Positions 30,238 through 56,056 of a stretch of DNA of 64,000 nt are shown here, piece after piece; position 1 is the stretch's first letter, and each line of letters begins with the position of its first letter. The stretch is taken from assembly GCA_910578765.1 (NCBI GenBank), contig CAJTRW010000001.1, positions 3,386 to 67,385 on the forward strand. Reading direction: 5' to 3'. The notes beneath the pieces were generated by a model, which made no database searches, was not told where the DNA came from, and worked only from the letters and a program-made list of their open reading frames with translations. Position numbers and translations under genes: made by a program. The stretch is from an uncultured Christensenella sp. (GTDB lineage: Bacteria > Bacillota > Clostridia > Christensenellales > Borkfalkiaceae).

Positions 30238-30353
30238 AATAATCCTCGGGATTAGAGATTTTAAACAAAAAGTTTAATAAAAATAAACCCAAACAAGAAG
30301 ATTATATATATACAGCCCCCCTATGTCAAATATTTTTGTATAGTAATAAAAAA

Positions 30354-30375
30354 ATTCCCCGTCGAAACGGGGAAT
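30354..30375. terminator. Bidirectional terminator after the SGNH esterase gene
   Basis: Stem attccccg / cggggaat with loop tcgaaa, flanked by an A-run and a T-run. Confidence 0.7.
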
Positions 30376-30392
30376 TTTTATTTACTGATGAA

Positions 30393-32195: not shown

Positions 32196-32236
32196 ATAAT
32201 TCTCCTTAAAAAATATTTCAAACTGATAAGGATATT

Positions 32237-32276
32237 TGTGCGTTAATTCATTAACGCACAAGAGGGTACCCTCTTG
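32237..32276 (-). terminator. Two abutting hairpins right after the TIR gene stop (probable end of the island operon)
   Basis: Stems tgtgcgttaa / ttaacgcaca (32237-32260) and caagaggg / ccctcttg (32259-32276). There is no strong T-run. Confidence 0.45.
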
Positions 32277-32291
32277 CATTTCGACTTTTAA

Positions 32292-33431
32292 TTATAAATT
32301 TTTACCGAGCAGATATTTTTTGTATTTATTGTAATCTATGTCGATAACCGGTATTATGCTTGCGCAGGCGTCCACGTTTATTTGACGGTAAACGTCGTCG
32401 CTGCCCCTGTCCGCAAAAAGTATGTTGCCCTGACTGTCGCCGACAAAGAAATAACCGTCGTCTATCGAATCTGTCAGCGGCGCTTTTTCAAGCACTTCTT
32501 TCAGTTGCGGATAATTATTTTCATGCTCGGCAGCGCGCAGAAACCTGATTGCTTTGCCGTTGCCGTCCTTTTTCAGACACTCCGCAAAAGACGGTTCTAA
32601 CTCAATATGTTTTTCTTTCAGTCGCACGTCCCCTTTGTCAAGGAAAAGACCGTCGTTTATATAATCCATGACGCTTACCGCCAAGGAACGGCAAGCCGCG
32701 CCGTACAGCTCGTCTGAAACGAAAATTGCGCTAATCGTATCACCGTTATAGGCAAACACCTTCCACTCCGCATCCTGACCGTTGACCACGTTTTCAACTA
32801 TGCGGCAGGAAGTTTTTATGCGGTAATTCGCGTCTGTAAGCCCGTCCTCCGCAAGCGCGTCTATCTTGCCGCTTTCCTGCGACAGACACCCCCAGGTGGC
32901 AAACACGTCCTTTATAAGGGAATTGACAAGACCGTCGTCGTCCGTGCGCCCGAAAGCCGCCGTCTTATATATCCTGTCTTTATCGAACTTTTTTGAAAAG
33001 TGTCCCGTGCGCTCTAAAATTTTATCGAAATCCGCGGGATGCGCGCCGAGGAGCTTCTGTGTGGAAACGCTGAGAAAATTCTGCAAATTCATAGGGTCGC
33101 CGTCGCCCATAAGTACGTACGCCGTACCGAATTTTTTATGCGATTTTTCAAGACTTTCCGCCATATCGAACTCTTTGAGGCACGCCTCGCTGAAAATGAA
33201 ATCCGGACTGACAAGATATAAAATACCGCAGCAGTTTTTATTTGCCGTGACTTCCTCTACCTTTTTAAGCCAGTTCTGACCCGTTTTAAGCTCCGCGTCG
33301 TACCAAAAGTCCGCGCCATAATCGTTAAGCGCGGAAAGAAGCTTTGACACCGCTTCGCCATCCGCATGAGAATAGCTTACGAAAACGTATTTGCCGGAGG
33401 GGTTTTTTCTGCCGAGATATGTGTTGATCAT
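32292..33431 (-). CDS. TIR-domain protein with a ~230-aa uncharacterised C-terminal domain
   Basis: 379 aa. N-terminal KYVFVSYSHADGEAV...FWYDAEL..G.NW...V......CCGILYLVSPDFIFSEACLKEFDMA is a bacterial TIR pattern. The start overlaps the upstream stop (ATGA). Confidence 0.8.
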   Translation of the reverse strand: MINTYLGRKNPSGKYVFVSYSHADGEAVSKLLSALNDYGADFWYDAELKTGQNWLKKVEEVTANKNCCGILYLVSPDFIFSEACLKEFDMAESLEKSHKKFGTAYVLMGDGDPMNLQNFLSVSTQKLLGAHPADFDKILERTGHFSKKFDKDRIYKTAAFGRTDDDGLVNSLIKDVFATWGCLSQESGKIDALAEDGLTDANYRIKTSCRIVENVVNGQDAEWKVFAYNGDTISAIFVSDELYGAACRSLAVSVMDYINDGLFLDKGDVRLKEKHIELEPSFAECLKKDGNGKAIRFLRAAEHENNYPQLKEVLEKAPLTDSIDDGYFFVGDSQGNILFADRGSDDVYRQINVDACASIIPVIDIDYNKYKKYLLGKNL

Positions 33432-35857
33432 TGCTTTTCACCCTCCTTTATCACGGTCTCGTAAAATTTGGAGCACCTTATCAGTATAGGATAAGTTATC
33501 CAGCGCGTTTTTTCGAATTTCTTCGGCGCGATGTAATAATATCTTTTACTTATCTCGTACGAAAAATATGTAATGACGTTGTATTCCTTTTTTGGAAGAT
33601 ATTGCTCGCTTTCGTATACGGTGAAGGCGTTTATAGTGGTTTTATCTACGTTTACCCGACTTGAAGTATGCGTAAGAACCTGCGGGTAACAGGCAAACCT
33701 TGTACCGCCCGCGTCGTCGCCCTTGAAAAATTTCAAAAGCTCTATAACCCTGCCGATGAATTTGTCTCGTTCGCCGCGACACTGCTCCTCGTCGTCGAGG
33801 TCGCAACGGTATACGTATTCGAATCCGCCGCCGGATTTTCTTCTGCGTTCTACCAGATAGCACTTGCCGTTTTTATCGTCCATGCTTATAAACGCGCCGA
33901 GGGGTGTAAGACTTACCATCTCCCTGCCGAGCATAATGGATATTTCGGACTTCTGCTCCTCGGTGTCGTCGATAAGATTTCTGAAAAGAGTATAAAAAGT
34001 AGGCGACTGCCCCAAAACTTTAAGCTTACCGCGCACCCCCTGCATGAAAGCGAAATCTATCGCCTCCCTGCATTCCTTTACCGCCTGCGCGTTCAGCGAC
34101 GAGGTTTGTTCCGCCTTTATTTCGTAATCGAGCTGCTGGCTTGTGCAATTGGCAAGTCCCGCGTAGTAAGTTAAAATAATTTTTAAGGTGTCTCGCAACG
34201 CCGAGCGGACGTCCATAATACCGCTCATGCCGCTTATCAAATCTATTTTGTTTTGTATGCTGTAAACGTTTTCGCTGGGGCTTACGCTGTGGTCGGTCTT
34301 GTCCCTGTCCAAATTTTCGAGGCTGTACACAAGCGCGTCGGTATACGCCCTGATTTTAAAGGGCTTCAACGTCTGCGCAACCACGCCGTCATCACCGTCT
34401 ACCTCGCCGAGATTAAGGGAAAGATACTTAATAGACTCACCGTAAAACTCTTTTCTGAGTTCTTCCACTTCGACCGAGTCGAAATCCGCAAATCTTTTTT
34501 CCAGCTGACGGTTCACCTGTGAAAACAGCTCGTCATAGCTTTGGGTACCTATATATTCGAACTTAGCGAAAAGCTGAGGAAGAATTTCCTTACAGCCGAC
34601 GACAGAAAACAGAATTGTCAAAATGGATACTATATCCATATTGCTTACGCAGTCTGCTTTAAGCCTGTCCTTCGACTCGATAACCCTGTCTTCGTTACAA
34701 AGTCTGTTCCGCGCGCCGAATTTACAGCCCGCGCCGGAGCATACGCAGTCCTCTTTGCATATATTGAAGTTGTTTTTGATAACGGGCAGAATATAATTTT
34801 CCACTACGGCAAATTGCTTGTCCTTGGCAACGACGAGAATTTCAAGCGCGTCCATAACGGAGGCAGCAAGCTCGCCGTAATATTTATAGCTAGAAAGTCC
34901 GTTACAGAATGACATTCTGTGTCTTTTCCGCAACAGGTCTCCCGTTATGTAAGAGTAAATCTTACCAGTGCTGGGCGCAAGAATTATCAGTCCCCTGTCC
35001 GCCTGCGGATTTATTTCCGGAGAAAAGAAAATTTTCACCGCCTCGCTTGTGTCGTTGTCGCTAAGCCCCGTATAGTTAAGGCGCAGAACCTTGGGACCTT
35101 TTTTATTTGATAATTCTTCAATGTTTCTTAAAAGCAGAAATTTATCGCAATATTCGTTCGGCGAATATCTGACAAGCGCATATTTCGACGGATAGAAATT
35201 GTCGCCGACCTTGAAGCAGCACGGAACAACCTTTGCGTCCGCGTCCGCATATTCGCCGTCGTCGGTAATTTCAATGTCGCAGATAAACCCGAATTTTTTG
35301 AAAAGAGTATATAAAATATCGTTCGACTCCGTCATGTGCCCCTTCTTTTTGAAGGATGACTGGCGCAGCTTTTGGATATGCCTGAAAACGGAAATATATT
35401 CCTTCGTTTCGCTGTAAAAAGCGCCGCCCTTTTTTAAAACGTCGAATTTGTCGCGGAAGCTTTCGCTTGCGTCAAGCCCCAGCGCGATATTCAAAAGCAC
35501 GAAGCGCACCACGTCGTCGGTCACGTTATACGTGCTGTATAAATTGTCTGCGGCGTGCTTTATACGCGCTTCGCAATTGGATTCCGCACGGAAATCAACT
35601 GTCTTGTATAGCGCCTTGTATTTTGAAACGATGTACGCGAAAACGAGGTTGACTATACGGTTGAACATTTCCTCGCGGTAAATGGAAGCCGTTCTTAAAT
35701 TTTTTTCCAGCTTTTTCAGCTCTTTTTCGTAGTCCGAAACGAAATCCAAACCGAGTACTATCTGTCTGACGTACTTATCCTTTATCCCGCGACATAAATC
35801 AATAATTTTATCTGTGGCGTCTTTTTCTTCAAAGACGTCTGCACTTTCTAACGGCAT
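33428..35857 (-). CDS. Hypothetical 809-aa protein (no family recognised)
   Basis: Long uninterrupted ORF in operon context. The only motif noticed is the Cys cluster CKEDCVCSGAGCKFGARNRLC (about 34697-34765). Confidence 0.7.
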   Translation of the reverse strand: MPLESADVFEEKDATDKIIDLCRGIKDKYVRQIVLGLDFVSDYEKELKKLEKNLRTASIYREEMFNRIVNLVFAYIVSKYKALYKTVDFRAESNCEARIKHAADNLYSTYNVTDDVVRFVLLNIALGLDASESFRDKFDVLKKGGAFYSETKEYISVFRHIQKLRQSSFKKKGHMTESNDILYTLFKKFGFICDIEITDDGEYADADAKVVPCCFKVGDNFYPSKYALVRYSPNEYCDKFLLLRNIEELSNKKGPKVLRLNYTGLSDNDTSEAVKIFFSPEINPQADRGLIILAPSTGKIYSYITGDLLRKRHRMSFCNGLSSYKYYGELAASVMDALEILVVAKDKQFAVVENYILPVIKNNFNICKEDCVCSGAGCKFGARNRLCNEDRVIESKDRLKADCVSNMDIVSILTILFSVVGCKEILPQLFAKFEYIGTQSYDELFSQVNRQLEKRFADFDSVEVEELRKEFYGESIKYLSLNLGEVDGDDGVVAQTLKPFKIRAYTDALVYSLENLDRDKTDHSVSPSENVYSIQNKIDLISGMSGIMDVRSALRDTLKIILTYYAGLANCTSQQLDYEIKAEQTSSLNAQAVKECREAIDFAFMQGVRGKLKVLGQSPTFYTLFRNLIDDTEEQKSEISIMLGREMVSLTPLGAFISMDDKNGKCYLVERRRKSGGGFEYVYRCDLDDEEQCRGERDKFIGRVIELLKFFKGDDAGGTRFACYPQVLTHTSSRVNVDKTTINAFTVYESEQYLPKKEYNVITYFSYEISKRYYYIAPKKFEKTRWITYPILIRCSKFYETVIKEGEKQ

Positions 35858-35873
35858 AATATTTCCCTTTAAA

Positions 35874-36827
35874 TCAATTGCGTCTTATAAGCAGATTTGC
35901 AAGCTGCCTGTACTTTTCCTTTGCCATTACCTCGTCGGGGGCATCGGTGGCAAGCTTTGCAAGACAGCACTCCTGCCATTTGAACCTGTCCACCTCGGGA
36001 ATGCCGGGCACCGCGCCCTCCTGCATACCCCACGCCAGTCTGATAACTCCGCGCGTGTCGTGTGCCTTTGTATCCATTTCCTCACGGAAGCCCGCAAACA
36101 GATTGTCCTTGTAATATGCAGGATATACGTGCGTATCGATCTGCATTTCCCTGAAAGGAACCGCCGAGGGACAGAAGATTATCTTTTTCTCGTTTTTGAC
36201 CGCCGCCCATTTTGCCATAAGCTTTTCGAAGCACAGCCTTGTGCCCTTTTCGAACTGTACGGACGGGCGCATGCAGCACACTATGGTGTCCGACCTGTCA
36301 AGCGAGAAGGTAGCCATGTCCTGCGTGCCCGACGGAGTATCGAAAACGACGGTACAGTCGCATCTGTCCATGACGTCGAACGCGGCGGTTAAATTTTTGT
36401 TTTCCGGCCCCTGACCGTTCATTGCGAAAACCGTTTCCCAAAGAGCGTCCTGCTCTGCGGGGGTAACGTCGGAGCGAAGAAGAAGAACCGCCTCGTTTTC
36501 CACGTCGCGCGTAAAATAATTGCCAATGGGGATAAAATACTCGTTCAGTTTTTTATACGAGCCCCAGTCCGTCGGGTCGCCGTTATAATTGAATGTGTCG
36601 GATTTGGCGCGGACGCCGAGACCCTGCAAGGATTGCTCCGCGTCGTACTTGGCGCCGGAATCCTTTATAAGCATGGACATGCCGTAGCTTTCCGTATCAG
36701 CGTCCACTATGATAAGCGGAGATTTGCGGGTGGGCTTTTGCTCCTGAATAAGATAATAAAGGGTATTAAGCGTTGCGGTCGTTCTGCCGGAACCGCCTTT
36801 ATATGAAAAGAATGAAATAACCGACAT
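35874..36827 (-). CDS. ParA/MinD-like (SIMIBI) ATPase with a KGGSGR variant Walker A
   Basis: 317 aa. ISFFSYKGGSGRTTATLN is a deviant Walker A with Arg in place of the GK[ST] lysine. IVDADTES and a Walker B-like VVFDTPSG are present. Confidence 0.75.
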   Translation of the reverse strand: MSVISFFSYKGGSGRTTATLNTLYYLIQEQKPTRKSPLIIVDADTESYGMSMLIKDSGAKYDAEQSLQGLGVRAKSDTFNYNGDPTDWGSYKKLNEYFIPIGNYFTRDVENEAVLLLRSDVTPAEQDALWETVFAMNGQGPENKNLTAAFDVMDRCDCTVVFDTPSGTQDMATFSLDRSDTIVCCMRPSVQFEKGTRLCFEKLMAKWAAVKNEKKIIFCPSAVPFREMQIDTHVYPAYYKDNLFAGFREEMDTKAHDTRGVIRLAWGMQEGAVPGIPEVDRFKWQECCLAKLATDAPDEVMAKEKYRQLANLLIRRN

Positions 36828-36855
36828 AAAAAATTTTTCTCCTTGGTTTCCCCGT

Positions 36856-39201
36856 TTACTCCTTGTTCGACGGCACCTTTGCCGTGAGATAAGTTATAAG
36901 ATTGCGCATGAATTTAGAGCTGTCTCCCTCCGCGCCGAAAACGTTTCTGATTATTGTGCTGTGCGCGTCCTTTCTGTCCTCGGGGTCGCCGTTTTTCAAA
37001 AAAGCCACAAGCTGGGGATTGTATTCCATAGAAAGTAAGGACAAAAGCTGTAATTTTTCCGTAAGGTGCACAAGCTTGGTAAGCTTAACCGCGTCGGTAT
37101 CCTTGTCGAAGGAATTCAACTTGTCTATAACCTTTTCGCGGTTGCTTCTTTCGCCCGCTTCCAGATTGGCAAGCAGATTGTCCGCCGTAAGCTGGTCGTC
37201 TATAAGGTCTATAAGCCCGTTAGCGACGAAACCCGCTATGTCTCTGAAAAGCTTCCTTGTACGTCCGATATATTCGTCGCGCCAGGCAATTTCCTCCGCG
37301 TGCTTTTTATGCGCGGCGGAAAGCACGTTTTCGTACTTTTCGCGCTCTGCCTGCGCTGCTTTCTTTTCCTGTCTGCGCCTGTTTCTTTCGCTGTCGATAA
37401 AGGGCTCCTCATACTGCTCGTAATAGCGGTAGAAGGATATAAGCGCGTCAATGTAATAGTAGTTGGTAATTGCGTTGAAGCCGTCCTTATCCCATACCCA
37501 GCTCGACTCTCCGCCCTTGCGCTTTTTGTTGCGGATGATATCTTTTAAAGACTCCTTCATCTGCTTCTGAGGATACTGCACAACATACTGACTCATCAGG
37601 TTGTTGTTTTTAAGCATAAGGGGCAGAAGCGGAACCGCCGCTATATTGACTTTTCTGAGCTGTTTGGCAAGCTCGGAATTGGTGTCGTCCACCTTGTCGG
37701 AAAAGTCAAGTATATAGCTGTCTATTTTATATAAAAGTCCTTCGTTCTCGATCTCGTTATAACAGCGCTGCGTATTCTGTATAGCTATCTGGAAGGTGTT
37801 CAGCATTTTTTCGTATTCTTCGGGGTCGTTTACGGAAAGCTCATAATCGTACGCCGAATTCAATATTATGCCTATTACGAAAAGATTGTTGAAAAACGCG
37901 TTGTTGTGGCTGGAAAGCCTTACCGTATCCATGTCGACGAGAGTACCGTCCTCGTAACAGGGGCCCTTGGACATATTGACCTTAAAAGGCGTTTTTGTTT
38001 TCAGGTTGCCGAAGCCCTCGTTCCACAGACTTTCCGCAAGAGAGACGGAGGCTTCTTTCAATACAGTGAAAGCGCCGTCTGCGCCGTCCTCGTCCGCCCT
38101 GTACGTCAGCGGCTGCCCGGCGTTGATTGCGTTATAAAGCAGGTCAAGCTCTTTTAAAGAGTCCGCGGAAAGGTTGGAAAGGAAGTCCGCAAATTCGTCG
38201 AACCCGTCGCGTTTAAGGCGCTGCACCGTCTTTTCAAGCGAGGCCGGGTTGGTCAGCCCATGATAAAATTTAAAGTGCGCGACGGTGTCGCCCGAGGCCG
38301 AAAGCTGCTTTTCGAAGCGTCTTAATTTGCCGACAATATCAGCGCCGCAATCGAACCGTTTAAAAAGCCCCAGATAGACCGTCGACGCAACGTAAGAGAA
38401 ATATAACGAAGGCTCTGCCCCGCTCATCTTCCTGAACGACCAGCCCGCCACTTTTCCATCGCGACGGACTATGCAGTCGCACGTGATTCTGATACATTCG
38501 AGATACAGCGCGCGGACAGCCTTTTCCACTTCCTCAGCGGAAAGTGTTTCGTCCGCGGTATAAACCCTGTCGCCCTTTATTTCCCATTTGATTTTAGCGT
38601 ATTCTTCGGGGGCTACCCTTTTCATGCGGGCAAGGAAGCTTTCAACCGAGTCCGCGGCAAGGAACACCCAGCTTGCGCTGTCCAAATAGCCGCCCGTATC
38701 CCAACGAAGCCCTTCCGTCGCGGTGGTGTCGTCGTAAAAAGGCATACTGGAAAGAAGTATTCTTCCGCCCGACTTAACGCCCGAAGGGAAGCACTCGGCA
38801 AGCAGCTTGCAGACCGAATTTACAATTACGTTCAGTGTAGAGGGCTTGCCTTCCGTAAGCATTTCGGCAAAAGTTACACCTTCCGCCCCCTCCTCCTTTT
38901 CGTCCTCCAATAAGGAAATCTCTAACAGAAGCGCGGAGAGCGACGGGGCTATGGAAAGCACCCCCACCTCCTGCATTTCGTCGGAAAGGAAAAGTCCCTC
39001 GTCTGCGAGAGCGCGGCGCGTTCTTCTGTCGCCCGAACGGTATCCGTTAGCTATAAGGTCTTTAATCCACTCCCTTGCCGCAACTCTTTTGCTTTTGAAT
39101 TTTCTGAATATGCCGCTCTCTCCGCCGGCTTCCGCAAGACCGTCGAACTCGTCCGCGGCATTATAATTCTTTTCGCTCAATTTCTCTCTCTCCTTTATCA
39201 T
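36856..39201 (-). CDS. Hypothetical 781-aa, largely alpha-helical protein (no family recognised)
   Basis: Long ORF 11 nt after the radical SAM stop. It is rich in helix-like W/Y segments (ASWVFLAADS, SLYFSYVASTVYLGL, WVWDKDGFNAITNYYYIDALISFY) and has a coiled-coil tail. Confidence 0.7.
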   Translation of the reverse strand: MIKEREKLSEKNYNAADEFDGLAEAGGESGIFRKFKSKRVAAREWIKDLIANGYRSGDRRTRRALADEGLFLSDEMQEVGVLSIAPSLSALLLEISLLEDEKEEGAEGVTFAEMLTEGKPSTLNVIVNSVCKLLAECFPSGVKSGGRILLSSMPFYDDTTATEGLRWDTGGYLDSASWVFLAADSVESFLARMKRVAPEEYAKIKWEIKGDRVYTADETLSAEEVEKAVRALYLECIRITCDCIVRRDGKVAGWSFRKMSGAEPSLYFSYVASTVYLGLFKRFDCGADIVGKLRRFEKQLSASGDTVAHFKFYHGLTNPASLEKTVQRLKRDGFDEFADFLSNLSADSLKELDLLYNAINAGQPLTYRADEDGADGAFTVLKEASVSLAESLWNEGFGNLKTKTPFKVNMSKGPCYEDGTLVDMDTVRLSSHNNAFFNNLFVIGIILNSAYDYELSVNDPEEYEKMLNTFQIAIQNTQRCYNEIENEGLLYKIDSYILDFSDKVDDTNSELAKQLRKVNIAAVPLLPLMLKNNNLMSQYVVQYPQKQMKESLKDIIRNKKRKGGESSWVWDKDGFNAITNYYYIDALISFYRYYEQYEEPFIDSERNRRRQEKKAAQAEREKYENVLSAAHKKHAEEIAWRDEYIGRTRKLFRDIAGFVANGLIDLIDDQLTADNLLANLEAGERSNREKVIDKLNSFDKDTDAVKLTKLVHLTEKLQLLSLLSMEYNPQLVAFLKNGDPEDRKDAHSTIIRNVFGAEGDSSKFMRNLITYLTAKVPSNKE

Positions 39202-39212
39202 TTGTTACTTTA

Positions 39213-40313
39213 TTAAGGGTGTTTGTATTTGAATTCGCCGCCGAAACGGGCATAGTCGCCGCCTATTTTAGCGTATATGTATCTAAGCGGCTCGCACACG
39301 GTTTTTTTGATAGTAAACAAATCGCCGCGTTCGTTCAAAGTTTCGCCAAGACAAAAGCCCGCGCAATGCTCCCGCGCGATACAGTCTCGACATTCGGGAA
39401 GATTGTCCAGCGTCCTGCTCTGTAAAACGTCTATCTTCTTTTTATCGTAAATTATACGGTTGTTTTCTTTATCGTACTTGCCGTAGATAAACGCATCCAT
39501 CTGTGCGGCGTTTTCGCCGCTTGTACACATTTCGCAGGCGGAAACGTAACCGTCCATGGTCAGGTGCGGCATAGGCAGGCAAGAGCGGCAATTATAACAC
39601 GTTGGACCGTCGAAGTTGGTGGTGAAGTTGCTTTCGTAAAAAACCCCGCGCGTTTTGCCGTATTCCCTCGCCTCTATAAACCTGCGCGCAAAATGCATAT
39701 TGTCTATCGGCTCGAAAGTCTTATCCTCCGTCTCGCTGACGGGCGCGAAAATGGGGTCGACCCAGATATGCTTTATACCCAGCGACAAAAGATAGTCAAT
39801 GCCCTCCTTTTGCCTGTCTATATTGTACGGCGTAATAGTACTGCGCACGCCGACCATGGCGCGCTTGTTTTCGAGGTTTTTGAAATATTTCAGGTTGCGC
39901 TCTATAACGGCGGACGTAGGTTTTCCGCTGACCGTCACGCGGAACATGTCGTGCGTTTCGGGAAGCAAGTCCATGGACACCCAGATTTCGTCCATGTTAT
40001 AAGCCAGCCACTCCGCAAGGCGGGGGTTGAAAAACCCGTTAGTCTGTATTTCGCAGTTTACATCCGGTTTGAATTTCCTTGCGTACGCGCATATTTGTTT
40101 TATAAGCTCCGGCTCGGTCGTGGGTTCGCCGTCGCCGAAAAATCTTATTCCGTTCACTACGCCCGTGGCGACGTACTCGTCTATCCCGCACTTCGCAAAG
40201 TCCAAATCCAAAACGGTATATTTGGCTTTGCGCGCGCCGTAACAGTATTTGCACGCCATATTGCAACGCGACGTAAGCAGAAACGATATTATTCTTTTGT
40301 TACAGTAAGGCAA
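39213..40313 (-). CDS. Radical SAM enzyme with a C-terminal SPASM domain
   Basis: 366 aa. CNMACKYC is the CxxxCxxC cluster. The C-terminus has CYNCRSC...ACEMC and CRDCIAREHCAGFC (CxxCx5Cx3C). The apparent start is TTG at 40313, after GGGAGGA. Confidence 0.85.
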   Translation of the reverse strand: MPYCNKRIISFLLTSRCNMACKYCYGARKAKYTVLDLDFAKCGIDEYVATGVVNGIRFFGDGEPTTEPELIKQICAYARKFKPDVNCEIQTNGFFNPRLAEWLAYNMDEIWVSMDLLPETHDMFRVTVSGKPTSAVIERNLKYFKNLENKRAMVGVRSTITPYNIDRQKEGIDYLLSLGIKHIWVDPIFAPVSETEDKTFEPIDNMHFARRFIEAREYGKTRGVFYESNFTTNFDGPTCYNCRSCLPMPHLTMDGYVSACEMCTSGENAAQMDAFIYGKYDKENNRIIYDKKKIDVLQSRTLDNLPECRDCIAREHCAGFCLGETLNERGDLFTIKKTVCEPLRYIYAKIGGDYARFGGEFKYKHP

Positions 40314-42620: not shown

Positions 42621-44903
42621 TTATCTGAAACAGTCTATAAAGTGAATTGTTTCGTTATCCTTTAAGCCGCGCTTGCGGGCAATATCTATGCAGTGATACG
42701 TGCCGCCGCGGTTTATGGGATTGTTGTCCCTGTCGTGAAGGGGAAGCTCTTTGCCGTCCCATACGGCGATTAGCCTGTCGCATTTTTCTATAAGATATTT
42801 TCCCGACTCGTAGTAAGTATAAACGGGGTCCGGCACGACCTTGCACACTACGGCAAGGGCTAAAAGATGCCTCAGGTGCAACACCTCATTTTCCGTCATA
42901 GGGTTGCCGTGCGTTTGCCTGTCGCCGATAACGTCCCTTATGTGCTGTTCGTACTCCATTGGCAGGACGGCTTTGGTTGTAAGGTTAAGCTCGTCGGCGC
43001 ACTCGGCTATGAGTATATCCGCCCCGTTAGCGTAACACGTCCTGACTATGACGCGGTATTCCTCGGCATATTTTTTCAAAATAGCTTTTATTTTTTCTTT
43101 AATCAAATTTCTCGTAGCGGGGTCGGTGTCCTCGGTAAAGTATCTGTGACCCGTACCCGCAATTACCAAATCCTCCTTCCTGCCGGAGCGGTAATTATAT
43201 ATCTTTATGCCGCTGTTGAATTTTTTCAAAAGCGGTATTATGTTGCGAATCATTAAAACGTCCTTGCTTTTTTCGCTTTCGGAAAGCGCTTCGTACGGCA
43301 CTATGGACTTGTGGATTTTTTTACAGTTTCTCTCCTCCGCGGTTTTGTAATCGGTTCCGTAGCGCCAGCCGAGGTTAAGCTTTTCCCTGACCCAGCGCAA
43401 ATGCTCCTCGCGCGCGAGAAACTCCACGTTTCTCGCCCCCCGGTTCCCGAGGCGGCAGTCGTTAAAGTCGTCCACAACGGGATAGTCTAAATTTTTACTG
43501 CTGTAAAAGCAGTTTATAAGCTCCAGCTTGTAAGAGTAAGATTTTGCCTGTTCGATATTGGATACCTTATATTCCAGCGGCAATTCCGCAAAGGAACAAT
43601 TCAGATGGTCGATATTATAGTCCAGACAGTGCTTTATGTAACTTGCGTGTATCGCCTTGGCGAAGTCGCAAAGATTTATGAAGTTATCCTCTGAAGCGTA
43701 TAAATAGGATTTCTTTTTCTTCGTCCTTTCCGCCGCCGAAGCGTCCAGCCGCAAATCGGATTTTATAAAGCTTTTTATCGCTTTGACGAAATCTCCGTCC
43801 TGTATATCGTTAAAGCTTTTATTGGGACGCTTCTTTAAAAACCCGTCGGAATAATCGTCTACGGAATAACTTTCGAATATATACCGCGCGGAAATATAAT
43901 CGTCGGAAACCGTAAGCTCTACGTCCCAGGCTATGGGGTCGCATTTGCTCGCCTTGCCGTAAGCAAGCCTGTCCCAGTTCTGCAATTCGTCGCAGAGAAT
44001 GAGAAGGTACGCAAGGGGATGCTCGTTTAATTCAATCGGATGTGCATTTTCTATTTCGTATTTATTCAGACTGTTGTGAAGAAGTATCGCCGTCAGTACA
44101 TCCAGCCTTTCCGCGTCTAAAACAAGCCCGTCGTTTTCAAACAGGCTTTTCGCAAGAATGACCGCACTGAAATAGCCGTGGTCCATAAATTTCGGCTGGC
44201 GTTCCACGCGCGTTTTCAACTTTCCGCAAACATAGTCGAAGTCGTACCCCTCGCGCTTTTGCAGCCCGTAAGATAAAAGCTCGTTAACGGACGAAAAGGT
44301 CCTGTCGGCTTTCAAACTTTCTCTTATGCGCTTACCCGTTGCGTCGTCTAATTTTAAAAACCCGTCCATATTGCCGAACGAAACGTAGGGTTTTTCGCCG
44401 CCTTCCCACAGCTCGCCCGCGTAGACTTTAAGTTGCTCGTGCGCAAGTTGGAAGGGATAACCCACGTCGTGGAAAAGCGAAACGGTACCCCATAGACGCA
44501 AAAATTTTTCCGCCGCCTCGCCGCCCGTAACTTTATAAAAATTATCGAACGCGGAACGCAGCTTCCCGTCGTGCGCGTACATCGCCAGACCCAAAGCGAA
44601 AACGTAAACCGAATGCGAATAATGGTCGCGGTGTTTGGACAGCAGCTCGCCGGAATGATATTCGTGGTCGGAAAGAGTTTCCAATAGCTTTTGCGTGTTC
44701 TCGTAACCGCTGCCGAAAAGCTTGAAAATCTCACTGAAACAAAAATAGACGACGAATGCGTCCGCCTTTTTGCCGCTTTTTAAAAACGCTTCCGTAGCTT
44801 TGCGAAAACAGGTCATTTCGTTTTTCGGGATTTCGCCGCCGTTGCCGCAACGGTTTTCCATCATATCGAAATAGCCGCCGCATAGTTGTAACAATGTGTT
44901 CAT
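42621..44903 (-). CDS. HD-domain / RyR-domain / SLOG-like three-domain protein
   Basis: Start set at MNTLLQL (ATG 44903, AAAGGTGA RBS). HD: HRDHYSHS...LFHDVGYP. RyR: LAREEHLRWVREKLNLGWRYG...HKSIVPYEALSESEKSKD. C-terminus: VIAGTGHR...YANGADILIAECA...IAVWDG...NRGGTYHCI (LOG/SLOG-like). Confidence 0.7.
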   Translation of the reverse strand: MNTLLQLCGGYFDMMENRCGNGGEIPKNEMTCFRKATEAFLKSGKKADAFVVYFCFSEIFKLFGSGYENTQKLLETLSDHEYHSGELLSKHRDHYSHSVYVFALGLAMYAHDGKLRSAFDNFYKVTGGEAAEKFLRLWGTVSLFHDVGYPFQLAHEQLKVYAGELWEGGEKPYVSFGNMDGFLKLDDATGKRIRESLKADRTFSSVNELLSYGLQKREGYDFDYVCGKLKTRVERQPKFMDHGYFSAVILAKSLFENDGLVLDAERLDVLTAILLHNSLNKYEIENAHPIELNEHPLAYLLILCDELQNWDRLAYGKASKCDPIAWDVELTVSDDYISARYIFESYSVDDYSDGFLKKRPNKSFNDIQDGDFVKAIKSFIKSDLRLDASAAERTKKKKSYLYASEDNFINLCDFAKAIHASYIKHCLDYNIDHLNCSFAELPLEYKVSNIEQAKSYSYKLELINCFYSSKNLDYPVVDDFNDCRLGNRGARNVEFLAREEHLRWVREKLNLGWRYGTDYKTAEERNCKKIHKSIVPYEALSESEKSKDVLMIRNIIPLLKKFNSGIKIYNYRSGRKEDLVIAGTGHRYFTEDTDPATRNLIKEKIKAILKKYAEEYRVIVRTCYANGADILIAECADELNLTTKAVLPMEYEQHIRDVIGDRQTHGNPMTENEVLHLRHLLALAVVCKVVPDPVYTYYESGKYLIEKCDRLIAVWDGKELPLHDRDNNPINRGGTYHCIDIARKRGLKDNETIHFIDCFR

Positions 44904-44943
44904 AAATTCACCTTTTCTCTTACGGCAAAAAACCGCTTTGTTT

Positions 44944-44972
44944 ATTATATCACTAAAAACGCGCGCCGTCAA
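44944..44972 (-). promoter_or_regulatory. Promoter of the HD-RyR-SLOG transcription unit, TTGACG-17 nt-TATAAT
   Basis: Minus-strand reading is aatatTGACGgcgcgcgtttttagtgaTATAATaaac. The -10 lies at 44949-44944 and the -35 at 44972-44967. Confidence 0.7.
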
Positions 44973-44998
44973 TATTCGCCGCGGAATATCTTGCGGCA

Positions 44999-45027
44999 TT
45001 GACATTAATTGCGTTTAGTGTTATAAA
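44999..45027 (+). promoter_or_regulatory. Divergent promoter of the 550-aa membrane protein gene, TTGACA-17 nt-TATAAA
   Basis: TTGACA at 44999-45004, 17-nt spacer, TATAAA at 45022-45027. RBS ggagag precedes ATG 45060. Confidence 0.65.
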
Positions 45028-50320: not shown

Positions 50321-53300
50321 TTAAAGTTTTTTATAGAAAGAATGTACTATAGGTCCTAAAAAATAAGAATATACTAAATACTTTAATGCTCGTTTATAAT
50401 CTGCATTAGAATGTCCGCTTGAAATGCCACCAAAGAGATCGGCTCCAGCGTCCCACGGCGTTTCATAATAATCCCATGATGTTCTGTTATACCAGTTTTT
50501 ATATGAAGGTATTCCTATACAAACTCCATACCTAAAAATCCCTAACATCATAAGCTGAGGGACATGCCCAAACTCGTGTCTTACTGTGTCCGCATCCGTA
50601 TCAGACCTATCAAGTAGTATAATACCGAAAGAACCTGACCGCCCACTACCTATATTTGCCCTAATTACCGGAACTCCTTTGTAAAAGGACATTACTTGAG
50701 CTTTTGCCGCATTGTCCGCATTGGTGTTGTAAGGATTCCAACTTATTGCCGACATATCACTTTCTATGGCGCTATTAAAAACCGAGCCGACCAGCGCCGC
50801 GCCGTAAAGGCTTAGCGTCAAACCGAATTCAGCCGCAACGGCAAATAAGGGGCTTGCCATTGCAGGCAACAGCGTTGACGAAGTAATTGCCACGCCGACG
50901 GCGGCTAAAACTATACCGCCGACAACTTTGCCCGCCTGCACCCACCAGTCTTTTTTCCAAATCTCATACCACTTTGCTTTCATTCCGCTCGGGTCAACGT
51001 ACATCACGGGATTATTGCCGCAGTATGCAAACAAATTTAAGCCGTTTACGCTTTCATAGTCGGCGTATTCAATGCTGTCCTGTGAGATAAATCTGCCAAG
51101 CTCGGGGTCGTAATACCGCGTTTGTAAATAATACAAGCCTGTTTCGGTATCGTAATAGTAACTGCGGTATCTGAACGGATTTAAATTGCCGATATGCTGC
51201 ATATTGACTATGTCTTGTCCGTTTGCGTCTATAACCGCATGATTGCCCCAACAATCGTATACATATTTTACCACAATGTTACCGTCACGGTCAAGTATTG
51301 CTACAATATTCCCCTGCGCGTCCTTACGGTAAAAATACTGTTTATCCGCATATATCACACCCGCAACGCCGCTATTGTCATAGATAAACTGTAACCCGTT
51401 GCTTTGCGCTATTAAGTTGCCTGCGCTGTCGTAAACATAACTTATGGTGTTTTTATTTACGCGCCTGCCCGTACCGTCGTAAACGAAGCTTACTCCGTCA
51501 CAGTTAGTAAGTACTTTGCCGTAGCTCCACTGCAACGCTTTGCCGCGGTATACCGTGGGACTGCCGAAGTTGTTATATGTGAACAATTCCCCGTTATAAT
51601 TTTTAAGCCTGTCGCCGTCGTAGTCGTAAGTGAAGTGATTACAAATTTTTTCGGAAAGCTCCTCTCTGCTTTTCGAGGAATACTCGTACTCGCAACGCTC
51701 GGTTATGTTACCGTTTGTATCGTAAGTATACAGTACGGTTTTGTTTAAAGGTTTGTTGTCCTCTCTTACAATTCTGCCCAGAGTATCATATGAATACTTT
51801 GCAAAAACATGACCGTTTTCAATTATCTCGCAGATATTGCCGCGGTTGTCGTATTTGTACTTTATGCTGTCCTTGATATTTGCGCCGTTGCCGTACCAGA
51901 CCGTGGCGGGCATATTTGTTGCATGGTCGCCGACTTTGCGGTAACTGATATATTCACAAGAAATTTTGTTGGAACCGTTTAAAATCTCCTTGCCCGTATT
52001 CCTGCCGTTTATGTCAGTTAAAGGTTTAAACGAATATTCTTTGAATTTAATTTCGCTTAGCTTTTGCGCCGCAGTGTTGTCGTAGTAATAAGCATAAGTC
52101 TGCGAAACCGCGCCCGATATTGCTTTGCGTTTTAAAGCGTTCAATTCGTCATATGTATAGCTTTCCGTCACCTGCGCGGAGGAGTTTTTAAGCGTCGTCG
52201 CGGAAGTTAAATTGCCGTAACCGTCGTAAACGAACGAAGCGTTGTATTTGTCGGCGGAACCGATACATTTACTTTCCACACTTTCCAACTGCTGTTTGGC
52301 GTTGTACTTTTTCTCGCTCAGTTTAGTTCCGTCAACGGAAGCGGTTTGCGTCCTTATAACTCCGTCCGCGGTATCTACGCCCGTGTCGCTTTGCGTGACA
52401 GTACATATAATTTCGCCGTCGATAATCGAGGTTTGCTTTTCGCCGAAAACATACTTGCCGGTTGCGGCGGCGTAAGTATAATCTTTATAAGAATATTCGG
52501 CATAGTCGCTATTGTTTACCGACGCGAAAATTTTTCGGCGGGTATGGTCGTAGGTATTAGATATGACCGTGCTGCCGCTTTTTATTTCAACCGGTAAACC
52601 GCAGTTGTAAAAAACGTCGGTTGTGTTTGCTTCGCCGTTTGCGTCGCTTGCGGTTACGGAAGTTATCATGTCGTTATACGCATCGCGTCCGTATGCGATT
52701 TTACCGCCGTCGGGATAGGTAACGGAATTAATTACGTTAGTACCGTTCTTATACCCGTATTCCGCAACGCGCGCGCCGGTTTCGTCGACGTCGGCGATTA
52801 TCTGACCGTTTTCCGCCGTAACGCTTTCGCTATAAAACTTGGTGGAACTGTCCAGCGTGTTGTAGCTGACCGTTTTTACTGCGTTACCGTTTTTATCGTA
52901 AAAGCGCTCCTCGATATTTTTACCCGTAACAAGCTCCTCTCCCTCGACGTAGCTTTCGGTGAGCGTAAGACTGCCGTGCGAATTATAACGGTAATTCGTC
53001 ACGTAGTTTTTTTGCGTTATTTCGCCGTTAACCTCGGTATATTCGCAGGTTATTGCGGAAATTAAATTTTCATCATTGTCGTAGGAATAATTGATTTCCG
53101 TCTTAACGCGCGCGGTGTCGGATATGTTTTGCCAGTCTGAAACCGACGAAGTAAGCAAATTGAAATTGTCGTATTTTTCAACCGTGGTTACCGTTTTGTT
53201 GTCGGGCTTTGTCACGGTTACCGCCGTTACCGTTTTGCCGTCGGTGTAGTCGTAAACGTAATTTGTGACCGCCTCAGCGCCCGCCCCGTCCCTTTGCGTA

Positions 53301-56056
53301 AATTTTTTCACTTTTTTGCCGGAGTCGAAAACGTAGCTTTCGCTGTGACCGTTTTTTTCCGAAATTTCCGCGGTATTCTCGCCGTAAATAAAAGTTGTTT
53401 TCGCAAGAGTTTTATTAAACGAGTCTTTTTCGGTAATTACGTTTCGTGATATAGTTACGGGTTTCGAATTGGTGTTAATTTCCGTTATGCGGCTGTCTGC
53501 GTCGAATGAAAATTTATACTGCAAGCCGTCTTCCGTCTCAATACTGCGTATCTGATTACTCTGATATTTTAATTTCAAAAATCCGCCGTCCGCAAATTTT
53601 ACCGACTGCAAATTTAAGCCGCTGTATGCGTATTCGGTCTTTCTGCCGAGGCTGTCGGTTATGCTTGTAAGCAGCCCGTTTTCATAACCGAAGCGCAAAG
53701 TTTTACCCTCGTTGTCGTATACGGAAATTATTTTATTAGCCGAATCGTACTCTAAGGATATAGTGTTTCCGTGCGCGTCGAACATACATACGAGATTGCC
53801 GTTCTTGTTGAAACCGCTTATTACTCCGTTTTCGTCTTTGAGGTAATTAACCGGCGTATGTTTAAGCAGTAATTCCAGCTCTGCTTTTTTGGCAAAATAG
53901 TTTATAAAGCTTTGCTTTACCGCTTCGAAATTTTTCCTTGCCTGGGAAATAATGCTGTCCGATTGCCCTTTTACGGCACTTTTTTGACTTCTTAACAGCT
54001 CTGTGTCGGACGTTATACCGCTCTGCGTTTCCTGTTCACTAATTTCTTTTTCCAGCTGCTTTATACTTACCGATAACGATTGCAACTGATAAGCCGAGCC
54101 CGCGGGCAAGAGGATATAATTTGAATTTTCGCTTACGCCCTCGAACAATCTTTCGCAACTATTTTCATCAAGATCCGAAGCCCGGTAACTTATATTTAAA
54201 TCCGGCAAAATAAGTTTGACGTATTCCGACAGTGACGCTTTATAAGCTTTAACGGTTTCTTCAAGCTGAATTTGCTCCTGACGGCGCTGTTCGATAAGCT
54301 GGTAGTTTTTGAAATCGTCTATCACGGGTATCAGTGTAAAATTATCGCAAACCTGATGCCTGATTATTTGTTTTCCGTTGTAAGTCAAATTACCGCTGAC
54401 GTCTATCGCCACGTCGTTTTTATAAACGAAATGTCTTTCGCCGTTTTCGACGTAATAATAAACCTCTTTAAAAGTATGTTCGTCGCCAAGTTCATCGGTA
54501 TATGTATAAATTGTTTTATTTGCCATATCTTCTTGAGCAAGTTTCAGCTTGCTCCATAAATTCAGCTTCCAGTTTTCGCCGACGTAATTGCGCCCGTTAC
54601 CTTTCCTGTAAGAATTAACGATATTCAACGGAAAAACAAACCCGTCGCCGTCAAAGCTGTTTATTTCGCAAGTTACCGCGCCGGTGTTTACATCAACCGA
54701 CGCCACAACGTTTTTGCCGAGTTTAAACCGTTTGATATTCGCTTTATCCGCAGGGACTTTATCGGCTTCGGATTCCTTTTCTTCCCCGCCAGATTCGGGT
54801 TTGTTAGGGACGTAATCAATAATAAGCTGAGGCGCGTTTTGTCCATTTGCATAAAATTCAACATTTGAATTCTGTACTTCGGGATAATATGTTTTACCCT
54901 CGAAAATTATGAGGACATTACCGTTTGTATTGACATAATCTTCGGTTATATCGAAAATAAACGCACCGCTTTGATAAGTATATACCGTACTTTCTTTGCC
55001 GTTTATAAAAAAATAGCCGCTTCCGCCCTCCATAGCCGTAACTTTTAATTTTACGCTGTTTATCGCTCCGTCTACTTTTACTTTATCTTTATAAATCGTA
55101 ATTTCCGCAGTTTCTTGTGTTTGATTGTTAGTACTGCTGTATAAAAAAAGCTGGTTTTCAAAATAGCTCAATTCCGGATCGCTGGGATTATAATAACAGG
55201 TCTCAAACTTAAATGCCGTACTCGCGTTCACTATTATCTGCGGGTCGATTGTGACGGGTAAGGCGGTGGTTTCGGCGTTGATAAACTCCGCGTCGGCGAC
55301 AACTTTTATATTAAGCATACCGCTGTTCGCGTTTATTTCGTAGCTTACCTTATCGGAAAATTTATTGTTTGCGTCGTACATAAAAGGCGCAGGAATTATA
55401 AACTGTATCTTTCCGTTTTCATCGCTTAAACGCAGAGTATTATTTTCACCCTTTTCCGCTTTTAAGCCGCCTATATCCAGCGTGAAAAAGTACTCGTATA
55501 AGTCCTTCCTTTGCGTAATTTTAATATTTTCCTTTACCCTGTCGGCAAGCGGTAGATACTCTATTTCCGTACCGTCGTCAAGCGTCGCAAGGACTGTGGA
55601 ATTCCCATCGCAAAGGCGGCATGCGCAACCGCAGGAGCACCTTGCCCTCAAGCCTCCCGCCGAAAGAGTAATAACCTTTTCCCCCTTGGTAAGAGAGAAT
55701 ATTTTACCGTTGTTTGCGTCTTTGTCGAATTTCACCTTATAGCCGTTTTCGGCGTTTTCTATAATTTTTCCGTTATCGTAAAGACGGGTGTCGATTGGTT
55801 TTAATTTTCCGTCATCGCCGCAAAAATGCAGCGGCGCGGCGGATATTACTTTGCGCAAAAGATTATTGTTGCGCATGTAGGTATAAGAGTTTTGCGTGCG
55901 GAGATCTACGCTTTCATTTATGTATCCCCCGTCCTTTTCCGAAGCTGCGCAAGTATTTTTTACCGCCGCGTGACGGTTGTCACGCGGCGCTTCGTTTGCG
56001 CAGGAGGTGTTTTTTTCGCTTTCGCAAAAAACCGAATTGAATTTTAAAGTTCCCAT
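50321..56056 (-). CDS. RHS/YD-repeat polymorphic toxin, 1911 aa
   Basis: Many YD repeats (for example YDSANKIISVYDNEGKTLRFGYENGLLTSITDSLGRKTEYAY). RHS core end YYDPELGRFISQDS...NLFAYCGNNPVMYVDPSG is present. AAGGAG RBS lies upstream and there is no N-terminal signal peptide. Confidence 0.92.
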   Translation of the reverse strand: MGTLKFNSVFCESEKNTSCANEAPRDNRHAAVKNTCAASEKDGGYINESVDLRTQNSYTYMRNNNLLRKVISAAPLHFCGDDGKLKPIDTRLYDNGKIIENAENGYKVKFDKDANNGKIFSLTKGEKVITLSAGGLRARCSCGCACRLCDGNSTVLATLDDGTEIEYLPLADRVKENIKITQRKDLYEYFFTLDIGGLKAEKGENNTLRLSDENGKIQFIIPAPFMYDANNKFSDKVSYEINANSGMLNIKVVADAEFINAETTALPVTIDPQIIVNASTAFKFETCYYNPSDPELSYFENQLFLYSSTNNQTQETAEITIYKDKVKVDGAINSVKLKVTAMEGGSGYFFINGKESTVYTYQSGAFIFDITEDYVNTNGNVLIIFEGKTYYPEVQNSNVEFYANGQNAPQLIIDYVPNKPESGGEEKESEADKVPADKANIKRFKLGKNVVASVDVNTGAVTCEINSFDGDGFVFPLNIVNSYRKGNGRNYVGENWKLNLWSKLKLAQEDMANKTIYTYTDELGDEHTFKEVYYYVENGERHFVYKNDVAIDVSGNLTYNGKQIIRHQVCDNFTLIPVIDDFKNYQLIEQRRQEQIQLEETVKAYKASLSEYVKLILPDLNISYRASDLDENSCERLFEGVSENSNYILLPAGSAYQLQSLSVSIKQLEKEISEQETQSGITSDTELLRSQKSAVKGQSDSIISQARKNFEAVKQSFINYFAKKAELELLLKHTPVNYLKDENGVISGFNKNGNLVCMFDAHGNTISLEYDSANKIISVYDNEGKTLRFGYENGLLTSITDSLGRKTEYAYSGLNLQSVKFADGGFLKLKYQSNQIRSIETEDGLQYKFSFDADSRITEINTNSKPVTISRNVITEKDSFNKTLAKTTFIYGENTAEISEKNGHSESYVFDSGKKVKKFTQRDGAGAEAVTNYVYDYTDGKTVTAVTVTKPDNKTVTTVEKYDNFNLLTSSVSDWQNISDTARVKTEINYSYDNDENLISAITCEYTEVNGEITQKNYVTNYRYNSHGSLTLTESYVEGEELVTGKNIEERFYDKNGNAVKTVSYNTLDSSTKFYSESVTAENGQIIADVDETGARVAEYGYKNGTNVINSVTYPDGGKIAYGRDAYNDMITSVTASDANGEANTTDVFYNCGLPVEIKSGSTVISNTYDHTRRKIFASVNNSDYAEYSYKDYTYAAATGKYVFGEKQTSIIDGEIICTVTQSDTGVDTADGVIRTQTASVDGTKLSEKKYNAKQQLESVESKCIGSADKYNASFVYDGYGNLTSATTLKNSSAQVTESYTYDELNALKRKAISGAVSQTYAYYYDNTAAQKLSEIKFKEYSFKPLTDINGRNTGKEILNGSNKISCEYISYRKVGDHATNMPATVWYGNGANIKDSIKYKYDNRGNICEIIENGHVFAKYSYDTLGRIVREDNKPLNKTVLYTYDTNGNITERCEYEYSSKSREELSEKICNHFTYDYDGDRLKNYNGELFTYNNFGSPTVYRGKALQWSYGKVLTNCDGVSFVYDGTGRRVNKNTISYVYDSAGNLIAQSNGLQFIYDNSGVAGVIYADKQYFYRKDAQGNIVAILDRDGNIVVKYVYDCWGNHAVIDANGQDIVNMQHIGNLNPFRYRSYYYDTETGLYYLQTRYYDPELGRFISQDSIEYADYESVNGLNLFAYCGNNPVMYVDPSGMKAKWYEIWKKDWWVQAGKVVGGIVLAAVGVAITSSTLLPAMASPLFAVAAEFGLTLSLYGAALVGSVFNSAIESDMSAISWNPYNTNADNAAKAQVMSFYKGVPVIRANIGSGRSGSFGIILLDRSDTDADTVRHEFGHVPQLMMLGIFRYGVCIGIPSYKNWYNRTSWDYYETPWDAGADLFGGISSGHSNADYKRALKYLVYSYFLGPIVHSFYKKL
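50324..50980 (-). other. C-terminal toxin tip of the RHS protein: 2 TM helices plus an HExxH domain
   Basis: 219 aa follow DPSGM. VVGGIVLAAVGVAITSSTLLPAM and PLFAVAAEFGLTLSLYGAALVGSVF are hydrophobic helices, followed by DTVRHEFGHVPQ. Confidence 0.7.

Follow-up and report, generated by a model that had tools for sequence, protein, structure and literature searches.

Why would a bacterium place a ryanodine-receptor (RyR) repeat between an HD-like domain and a SLOG domain, and encode the resulting protein in one array with a TIR gene? The question is raised by a minus-strand gene (42621..44903) in a stretch of 64,000 nucleotides from an uncultured Christensenella sp. (assembly GCA_910578765.1, contig CAJTRW010000001.1, positions 3,386 to 67,385), in the following called the window. 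Its product of 760 amino acids (aa) belongs to a large uncharacterised family whose genes usually lie beside TIR genes and, judged from the sequences, probably represents a new kind of Thoeris-like anti-phage effector. A first-pass annotation of the window had described a Thoeris-ThsA-like sensor with the domain order HD, RyR, SLOG, and this order is correct, the HD part being only probable. The reading that we prefer, and put forward tentatively, is that the gene encodes an effector of Thoeris-like TIR-based signalling, in which the RyR repeat would act as receptor, the HD-like domain as output enzyme and the SLOG domain as an accessory nucleotide module.

The RyR repeat and the domains on either side

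By sequence comparison, the assignment of a single RyR/R12 repeat is certain, in agreement with the first-pass annotation. Pfam family PF02026 matched with 41.1 bits against a cut-off of 27.4 (E-value 2.2e-10; aa 513-598 in the numbering of a 794-aa version of the reading frame, see below), a phmmer search of the PDB returned ryanodine-receptor repeats only, including a Bacteroides 'putative ryanodine receptor', and a profile made from distant relatives matched RyR2 at an E-value of 8e-34. When a full-length AlphaFold2 (AF2) model (mean predicted local distance difference test score, pLDDT, 85; predicted template modelling score 0.81) was compared with the PDB using Foldseek, Repeat12 of RyR3 was the next match after the YpsA structure described below. 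RyR was also the sole match in single-sequence scans of the protein against Pfam, NCBIfam and PADLOC.

The statement of the first-pass annotation that bacterial RyR domains lack an assigned function is outdated, as phage single-repeat RyR proteins bind 2'/3'-cyclic ADP-ribose (cADPR) and cADPR with nanomolar affinity, or cleave such signals (PMC13232231; 10.64898/2026.06.04.730250). RyDEP, a phage single-repeat R12/RyR homodimer described in a 2026 preprint, cuts the ribose-ribose bond of 2'/3'-cADPR by means of H75 and D117, while W78 stacks on the adenine and H100 touches the phosphates (PMC13232231). Six of eight RyDEP homologues bind signals, the two characterised ones with nanomolar Kd and without cleaving them; cleavage was found for one of the nine phage proteins tested, and the same H and D are also kept in non-catalytic sponge-type RyR proteins (PMC13232231). 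Similarly, RyR Tad gp68, from a second 2026 preprint, binds 3'cADPR, 2'cADPR and cADPR via H129/W132, K147/H154 and K170/D171 (10.64898/2026.06.04.730250).

In the window protein the putative ligand residues are H501, W504, R525/K528, H531, K547 and D548, all in register with R12 of RyR1 and with the phage RyR proteins. Conservation was assessed in an alignment of 33 homologues with 55-78% identity, in which E500, H501, R503, W504, H531, K547 and D548 of the repeat are invariant; H501, W504, H531 and D548, corresponding to H75, W78, H100 and D117 of RyDEP, are in addition identical in RyR1 R12 and in the phage RyR proteins. As sole query, the repeat matched 69 phage records at 33-44% identity, some of them annotated as RyR-domain proteins. 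Because phage RyR repeats bind or cleave cADPR signals and the ligand residues are invariant here, the repeat is more likely to be the primary sensor than an unexplained spacer. Cellular RyR-domain proteins in defence loci are not discussed in either of the two preprints (PMC13232231; 10.64898/2026.06.04.730250), and host RyR-domain proteins in TIR loci are not described in the literature searched. In the portions of text and supplements covered here, a systematic TIR survey lists 'SLOG and 4TM' and no RyR or PF02026 effectors (10.64898/2025.12.03.692087). Literature searches on SLOG plus RyR, and on the KGGVGR motif of a neighbouring gene product, returned nothing relevant.

Of the three domain assignments, HD is the one that stands least firmly. 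That the N-terminus belongs to the HD superfamily, as a divergent domain whose metal site is intact, is in our view very likely, and it is predicted to be a probable HD metal-dependent phosphohydrolase. Its key residues (Table 1) are invariant or near-invariant in 59 distant relatives, at a mean column identity of 14%, and in the 33 homologues H91, R92, D93, H94, H97, S98, H145, D146, H155, E156, Q157, D241, H242, H276, N277, D305, Q308, W310, D311 and R312 are all invariant. The domain is all-helical in both AF2 models, the full-length one and a dedicated model of aa 1-400 (pLDDT 81). Pfam family PF01966 was matched below threshold in nine of the 59 distant relatives (best E-value 0.0012), HD and RyR (39/59) being the sole recurrent Pfam families in this set, and in six of ten members of a second set of relatives (up to 19.6 bits against a cut-off of 22). 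In the better of these matches, model positions 4-40 map onto HSVNVF...LFHDIGYP, that is, onto the first His and the HD doublet. The window protein itself gave no match to Pfam HD, a profile of the N-terminal domain found nothing significant in the PDB, and a PDB search with a family-wide profile was swamped by RyR matches. With the model of aa 1-400, the top six Foldseek matches in the PDB were to the C-terminal region of exopolyphosphatase (PPX; best E-value 0.024, Foldseek probability 0.85), a region which we take to be classed with the HD-domain/phosphodiesterase-like superfamily; a 926-residue CRISPR-associated protein (4q2c), presumably a Cas3, appeared at an E-value of 2.4. No match of the N-terminal model in the PDB or BFVD fell below an E-value of 0.01, BFVD returning nothing, and a local hidden Markov model built on the HD core missed the TIR fusions with HD_3 that occur in some loci.

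The C-terminus is modelled as a SLOG domain whose nearest clade is YpsA and which is not of the ThsA type. The first-pass annotation had let its proposal depend on this fold, and the fold held: with pLDDT values of 88-95 across aa 590-760, the top Foldseek match in the PDB was YpsA of Bacillus subtilis (2nx2; E-value 1.2e-5, TM-score 0.66, 20% identity), and further matches were ShosA, TM1055, DprA, the molybdenum cofactor carrier protein and MHR1/2 of TRPM2, which we recognise as SLOG-fold proteins. Relatives gave sub-threshold Pfam matches to YAcAr (6/22), YpsA (5/22) and DprA (4/22), the best at an E-value of 0.002, and a PDB profile search with the SLOG alignment found nothing significant. 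Residues G585, H586, R587, G627, D629, E634, W715, D716 and T735 are invariant in the 33 homologues; G627-A-D629 forms a GxD/E-type motif, which is the signature of the YpsA clade, and both the GxD and the GGT loops are conserved. The likeness to ThsA claimed by the first-pass annotation was borne out for the encoding together with TIR genes; on the other side, no match to the PADLOC ThsA model and no SIR2 domain (Pfam) were found in the protein, and a ThsA structure is absent among the 50 best fold matches in the PDB.

The motifs quoted in the first-pass annotation are all present in the translation and invariant in the 33 homologues, and therefore they are not chance strings. Its coordinates were likewise retained. 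The open frame spans 42621..45005 on the minus strand and would encode 794 aa if counted from the first ATG, but the second methionine (M35, MNTLLQL...) at 44903 is the better start, giving the predicted product of 760 aa, because the N-termini of homologues, a Shine-Dalgarno site and a promoter-like site inside the extension all favour it. Coverage of the 794-aa query is 93-96% for each of the 120 homologues listed, and those that were aligned start at that methionine with MNTLLQL-type N-termini; the Shine-Dalgarno sequence AAAGGTGA lies 6 nt 5' of the ATG at 44903, and the promoter-like site (44972..44944) falls within the supposed 34-aa extension. Translation of the 34 codons upstream of M35, contradicted by these three observations, was rejected. 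No transmembrane (TM) helix is predicted in the 760-aa protein, which by prediction is cytosolic.

Family, conserved core and linkage to TIR genes

The family comprises more than 2,000 matches at 90% clustering, and an exhaustive profile search with the N-terminal domain yielded 1,796 cluster representatives at 50% identity. In a collection with one genome per species, 558 stretches were confirmed to encode a relative, which places the family in no fewer than 558 species, and 78 non-redundant loci were kept, mostly from gut metagenome-assembled genomes of Christensenellales, other Clostridia, Bacilli and Eggerthellaceae. The distribution is patchy, over Clostridia, Bacilli, Eggerthellaceae and Bacteroidota bins. 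For the comparison of neighbourhoods, open reading frames were called in 81 loci and in the window (n = 82) and then clustered; individual loci are given below by their L numbers. The family occurs in one of 50,697 phage records and gives one weak match among 72,556 plasmids. An origin from phages or plasmids was rejected on account of this near-absence, which therefore indicates a host origin.

Among the 59 distant N-terminal relatives, RyR was found in 39, as against a match to a SLOG-clan family in one only. Members with 33-38% identity to the window protein stop directly after the RyR repeat (L074, L076-L080). In L072, L073 and L081 a separate downstream gene encodes a homologous SLOG domain with about four TM helices, and such a SLOG-4TM protein also adjoins full-length members in L003, L026, L036, L039 and L070; in BLASTP comparisons, the SLOG domain of the window protein was similar to that of the SLOG-4TM proteins with E-values of 1.7e-9 to 3e-6. 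Given the SLOG-less members and the separate SLOG-4TM genes, HD plus RyR is therefore, as judged from these sequences, the invariant core of the family, and SLOG is a mobile, optional accessory. One SLOG-4TM protein showed a weak match to DUF4231, which we take to be SLATT-related.

TIR genes were sought in the flanks of the loci with an iterated TIR profile. The link to a TIR gene that the first-pass annotation had seen in the window is real and general. A TIR gene was present in the fetched flanks of 27 of the 78 non-redundant loci. Of the 32 loci with full 10-kb flanks, 18 had one no farther away than 10 kb, and in 11 of the 32 the distance was at most 300 bp. Thoeris overall occurs in only about 8% of genomes, and the TIR linkage of the family is therefore far above background. 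Adjacency to TIR is kept in SLOG-less members (for example L079, L080 and L076); in L080 a two-gene cassette consists of HD-RyR followed by TIR with a gap of 13 bp. The cassettes of L009 and L075 pair HD-RyR-SLOG with a TIR protein of roughly 985 aa, ABC transporter genes flanking the one in L075, and in L081 three TIR genes, HD-RyR and SLOG-4TM follow one another in an overlapping array. The TIR gene of the window matches the PADLOC ThsB model (E-value 2e-8).

Proposed role and rival explanations

The preferred reading can be put as a sequence of steps. On infection, the TIR protein of the locus would convert NAD+ into an ADP-ribose-derived signal, as known Thoeris TIR proteins do. This signal would be bound in the conserved pocket of the RyR/R12 repeat, probably at a site shared by the two chains of a homodimer, as happens in the phage RyR proteins. 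Binding would then activate the N-terminal HD-type metal-dependent phosphohydrolase, and the resulting hydrolysis of nucleotides or nucleic acid would stop phage replication. The YpsA-like SLOG domain may serve as a second, accessory nucleotide-binding module, either sensing this signal or one related to it along with RyR, or processing it. Split and fused forms both occur in the family, and in this reading the SLOG domain would go back to the soluble part of a SLOG-4TM effector encoded next door, joined later to HD-RyR.

Several observations weigh against this reading. About 44% of the complete loci have no TIR gene within 10 kb, and the TIR gene of the window lies 9 kb away with five genes in between, which makes it no more than a candidate for the cognate source of the signal. 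The HD assignment is composed of motifs, sub-threshold Pfam matches and weak fold matches (best E-value 0.024), the window protein itself being without an HD match, and the AF2 input alignment was shallow (33 sequences of at least 55% identity). The catalytic dyad of RyDEP (H, D) is conserved in the window protein as well, which makes cleavage of a signal possible instead of sensing. Finally, in one SLOG-less subgroup (P0236-type, about 570-590 aa) the equivalent of H531 is Thr; this replacement of the second pocket His points to another ligand, or another way of binding, in this branch.

The main rival, suggested by the conservation of the RyDEP dyad, is an enzyme by which the host would clear the signal, an off-switch or NAD+ recycler whose task would be to keep the adjacent TIR system from poisoning its own cell and not to kill. 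We regard this as unlikely. In this reading the RyR repeat would cut the ribose-ribose bond of 2'/3'-cADPR like RyDEP, and HD and the LOG-like SLOG would further process ADP-ribose or nucleotides. In its favour, H501 and D548, which correspond to the dyad, do not vary, each of the three modules could plausibly be an enzyme that processes nucleotides, and several loci hold other candidate effectors (SLOG-4TM and TM proteins). However, the two-gene cassettes of TIR with HD-RyR or HD-RyR-SLOG contain no other candidate effector; the dyad also persists in the non-catalytic sponges mentioned above, where cleavage was the exception; and a large protein whose HD site is strictly conserved over about 1,800 clusters fits an output enzyme.

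The model that follows the first-pass annotation takes ThsA as its pattern: SLOG alone senses the TIR signal, HD is the effector and RyR a structural or regulatory spacer. SLOG senses glyco-cyclic ADP-ribose in type I Thoeris and is also found in type III and type IX effectors, and the confirmed fold with its conserved loops would suit such a function. As SLOG is dispensable in the family, however, this model is disfavoured and in our view improbable: many TIR-adjacent members lack SLOG altogether, RyR is by far the more constant companion of the HD-like domain among distant relatives, the invariant RyR pocket residues match experimentally defined cADPR-binding residues, and the nearest structure to the SLOG domain is YpsA and not ThsA. 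Of the earlier proposal, the architecture and the TIR link were right; the choice of the sensor was not supported, nor was the statement on RyR function.

A housekeeping or stress enzyme of nucleotide or NAD metabolism, comparable to YpsA or to an HD nucleotidase and located in a variable region by chance, has little to commend it. The YpsA clade does include non-immune SLOG proteins tied to cell division and NAD salvage, and about 44% of the complete loci lack a TIR gene nearby, but TIR adjacency well over background, neighbourhoods that are variable and island-like (RHS, TIR, KGGVGR ATPase, SLOG-4TM) and the patchy distribution argue against it. That the protein serves anti-defence, as a sponge for Thoeris signals carried by a prophage or another mobile element and in effect a large relative of RyDEP and RyR Tad, is most improbable, since despite the identity of the repeat to phage sponge proteins and conjugation genes in one locus (L003), the family is nearly absent from phages and plasmids, and in many loci on chromosomes its genes run in the same direction as TIR genes and in close order with them.

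If the effector reading is true, TIR/Thoeris immunity would be extended by RyR/R12 as a receptor domain and by HD as an output enzyme, both new to it, in a family spread over hundreds of gut Bacillota species, and the RyR-repeat sponges and glycosidases of phages would be explained as copies of the host's own receptor fold. Whether R12 is a cADPR receptor in animal ryanodine receptors has been an open question since cADPR was linked to Ca2+ release. The family offers a small soluble bacterial system for asking whether R12-type repeats are genuine receptors of the cADPR family.

Partner genes and comparison with known systems

The window gene heads a tight same-strand array that extends from 44903 to 30393 (minus strand) with gaps of at most 107 bp; the strongest terminator-like hairpin of the region lies at 30379..30350. 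The gene order of the window as far as the TIR gene is repeated in L005 and L038. Coordinates of the array, of the domains and of partner genes in other loci are collected in Table 1.

Table 1. Features of the window and of related loci (coordinates refer to the window unless an L number is given).
Feature	Coordinates	Strand	Basis or remark
Whole gene: 760-aa HD-like / RyR / SLOG protein	42621..44903	-	stop codon at 42621-42623
All-helical N-terminal domain (aa 1-321), divergent	43941..44903	-	key residues H97, H145-D146, D241-H242, H276, D305
Small beta-rich subdomain (aa 325-392)	43728..43931	-	strands 327-392 in both AF2 models; no family match
Helical linker (aa 408-462)	43518..43682	-	invariant FINLCDFAKAIH / SNIEQAKSY motifs; alignment and AF2 model
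Single RyR / R12 repeat (aa 479-564)	43212..43469	-	Pfam PF02026, PDB RyR repeats, RyR3 Repeat12 fold match
C-terminal YpsA-like SLOG domain (aa 567-757)	42633..43205	-	motifs AGTGHR, GADxLIAE, WDG...GGT; Foldseek, sub-threshold Pfam, BLASTP
Promoter-like site TTGACG-17-TATAAT with TG extension (near-consensus extended -10)	44944..44972	-	consensus match only
N726: 726 aa	40421..42601	-	3-4 TM helices at the N-terminus; RyR-like EHxRW motif at the end of the cytosolic region
Radical SAM/SPASM enzyme	39213-40313	-	
U781, 781-aa protein	36856-39201	-	
KGGVGR-motif ParA-like ATPase	35874-36827	-	
U809, 809-aa protein	33428-35857	-	
TIR_2 protein	32292-33431	-	
GDSL-like protein, 628 aa	30393-32279	-	
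Divergently transcribed 550-aa protein, about 7 TM helices	45060-46712	+	no family match, no homologue in other loci
1911-aa RHS-repeat protein, then small ORFs (open reading frames)	50321-56056	-	
307-aa protein, C-terminal DUF2188	23170-24093	-	about 8 kb from TIR gene, past ABC transporter operon
SLOG + about 4 TM proteins (546-632 aa) beside HD-RyR genes	L003 7998-9785; L026 6355-8136; L036 12265-14163; L039 12337-14112; L073 3773-5413; L081 11767-13428		
c14 family	L020 12250-14115; L021 12380-14212; L052 1961-3808; L057 9659-11371		
TIR proteins, about 985-995 aa	L009 12325-15288; L075 12171-15119; L001 18520-21495		

The gene for N726 starts 19 nt past the stop codon of the HD-RyR-SLOG gene, and a homologue of it is found in 34 of the 82 loci. 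Pfam scans of 28 members and a PDB profile search gave no match. The C-terminus carries an invariant EHxRW...H...Y-D-Y pattern. When N726 was compared with the target family using hhalign, its EHxRW C-terminus aligned to the RyR repeat, albeit weakly (E-value 0.083, probability <1%), which is a lead and not a result; the helical linker of the target (aa 408-462) is also weakly alignable to the N726 region that precedes its RyR-like motif. HD-RyR-SLOG may pair repeat-to-repeat with the adjacent N726 and form a signal-gated membrane complex. A bolder form of the effector reading, which we find rather doubtful, would make RyR/R12 the cell's own cognate receptor for a cADPR-type signal produced by TIR and define a new Thoeris type (TIR with HD-RyR, with or without SLOG), possibly with N726 pairing. 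If the reading with N726 pairing is true, it would represent a forerunner, in bacteria, of the Repeat12 module of RyR and of the modulation of ryanodine receptors by cADPR.

Another membrane family, c14, comprises proteins of 571-622 aa with TM helices at the N-terminus, a weak ThiF match in the middle, possibly a Rossmann-type fold, and a C-terminal RyR repeat (Pfam, 26.8 bits). Its gene follows directly on HD-RyR-SLOG in L020, L021 and L057; in L052 it lies two genes upstream. The large TIR proteins of L009 and L075 directly adjoin HD-RyR-SLOG, and the one of L001 has a precomputed Pfam HD_3 match along with TIR.

A recurrent module consists of TIR, a protein of 690-880 aa (U781/c10), a KGGVGR ParA-like ATPase and a protein of 770-990 aa (c4/U809), sometimes together with a radical SAM/SPASM gene or with AdoMet decarboxylase-like, radical SAM and PPDK_N genes. 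It is present in the window (30393-40313, minus strand) and in L014, L032, L065, L031, L068, L026, L005, L038, L016, L043, L055, L057 and L058; the KGGVGR ATPase or the module was counted in 16 of the 82 loci. The sole PADLOC match of the module is a weak PDC-M28B match of the ATPase, and TIR, U781, KGGVGR ATPase and U809 may form a separate multi-gene TIR system. The analysis thereby exposes recurring uncharacterised partner genes of the family, namely N726, SLOG-4TM and the U781/KGGVGR ATPase/U809 module with its radical SAM enzymes. We read the RHS locus of the window as polymorphic-toxin-like, marking the region as a variable conflict island. The part of the TIR survey covered here names DUF2188, present at the C-terminus of a more distant gene product, among putative effector domains of Thoeris (10.64898/2025.12.03.692087).

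Among known systems, type I Thoeris with ThsA (SIR2-SLOG) and ThsB (TIR) resembles the present one in having a cytosolic multi-domain protein that is encoded with TIR genes and carries an N-terminal enzymatic head and a C-terminal SLOG domain. The logic expected to be common to both is that a TIR-made signal derived from ADP-ribose activates the effector. In contrast to ThsA, its head is HD-like and not SIR2, its SLOG is YpsA-like with no ThsA/STALD match, a RyR repeat is added between head and SLOG as the conserved partner of the head, and SLOG is dispensable in its family. The protein is not a member of the ThsA family; by analogy, a Thoeris-like effector logic with a different receptor and a different head is proposed. 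YpsA (2nx2) shares the GxD/E-type motif with the C-terminus that it matches best, but it is a stand-alone protein of about 180 aa tied to cell division, whereas the SLOG domain here is the tail of a three-domain protein with a sub-threshold match to Pfam YpsA.

SLOG-4TM genes, homologous to the SLOG domain of the target and adjoining HD-RyR and TIR genes, link the family to the predicted 'SLOG and 4TM' Thoeris effectors and to SLATT effectors (type VII, ThsH) (10.64898/2025.12.03.692087). Compared with these, the window protein appears to have lost the membrane part and gained HD-RyR. According to the covered portions of that survey, no defence was obtained with the SLOG-4TM candidates when they were tried in E. 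coli (10.64898/2025.12.03.692087).

HD enzymes are established in immunity, with the HD nuclease of Cas3 and the dNTPases of the dGTPase/SAMHD1 type. The N-terminal domain shares with them the H..HD..H..D pattern of metal ligands and an all-helical structure, and a possible terminal D-x-x-x-W-D motif is alike in the SAMHD1/dGTPase family, but there is no significant match to any of them in sequence or fold, 4q2c being the best. With RyDEP and RyR Tad gp68, finally, the protein has in common the single RyR/R12 repeat (PF02026) and the same H-x-x-W ... H ... K-D residues. In contrast to these small viral proteins (165 and 233 aa in the two examined), which sponge or cleave the signal against Thoeris, it is a 760-aa host fusion encoded beside TIR, and its sequence context leads us to place it, with some reservation, on the side of defence.

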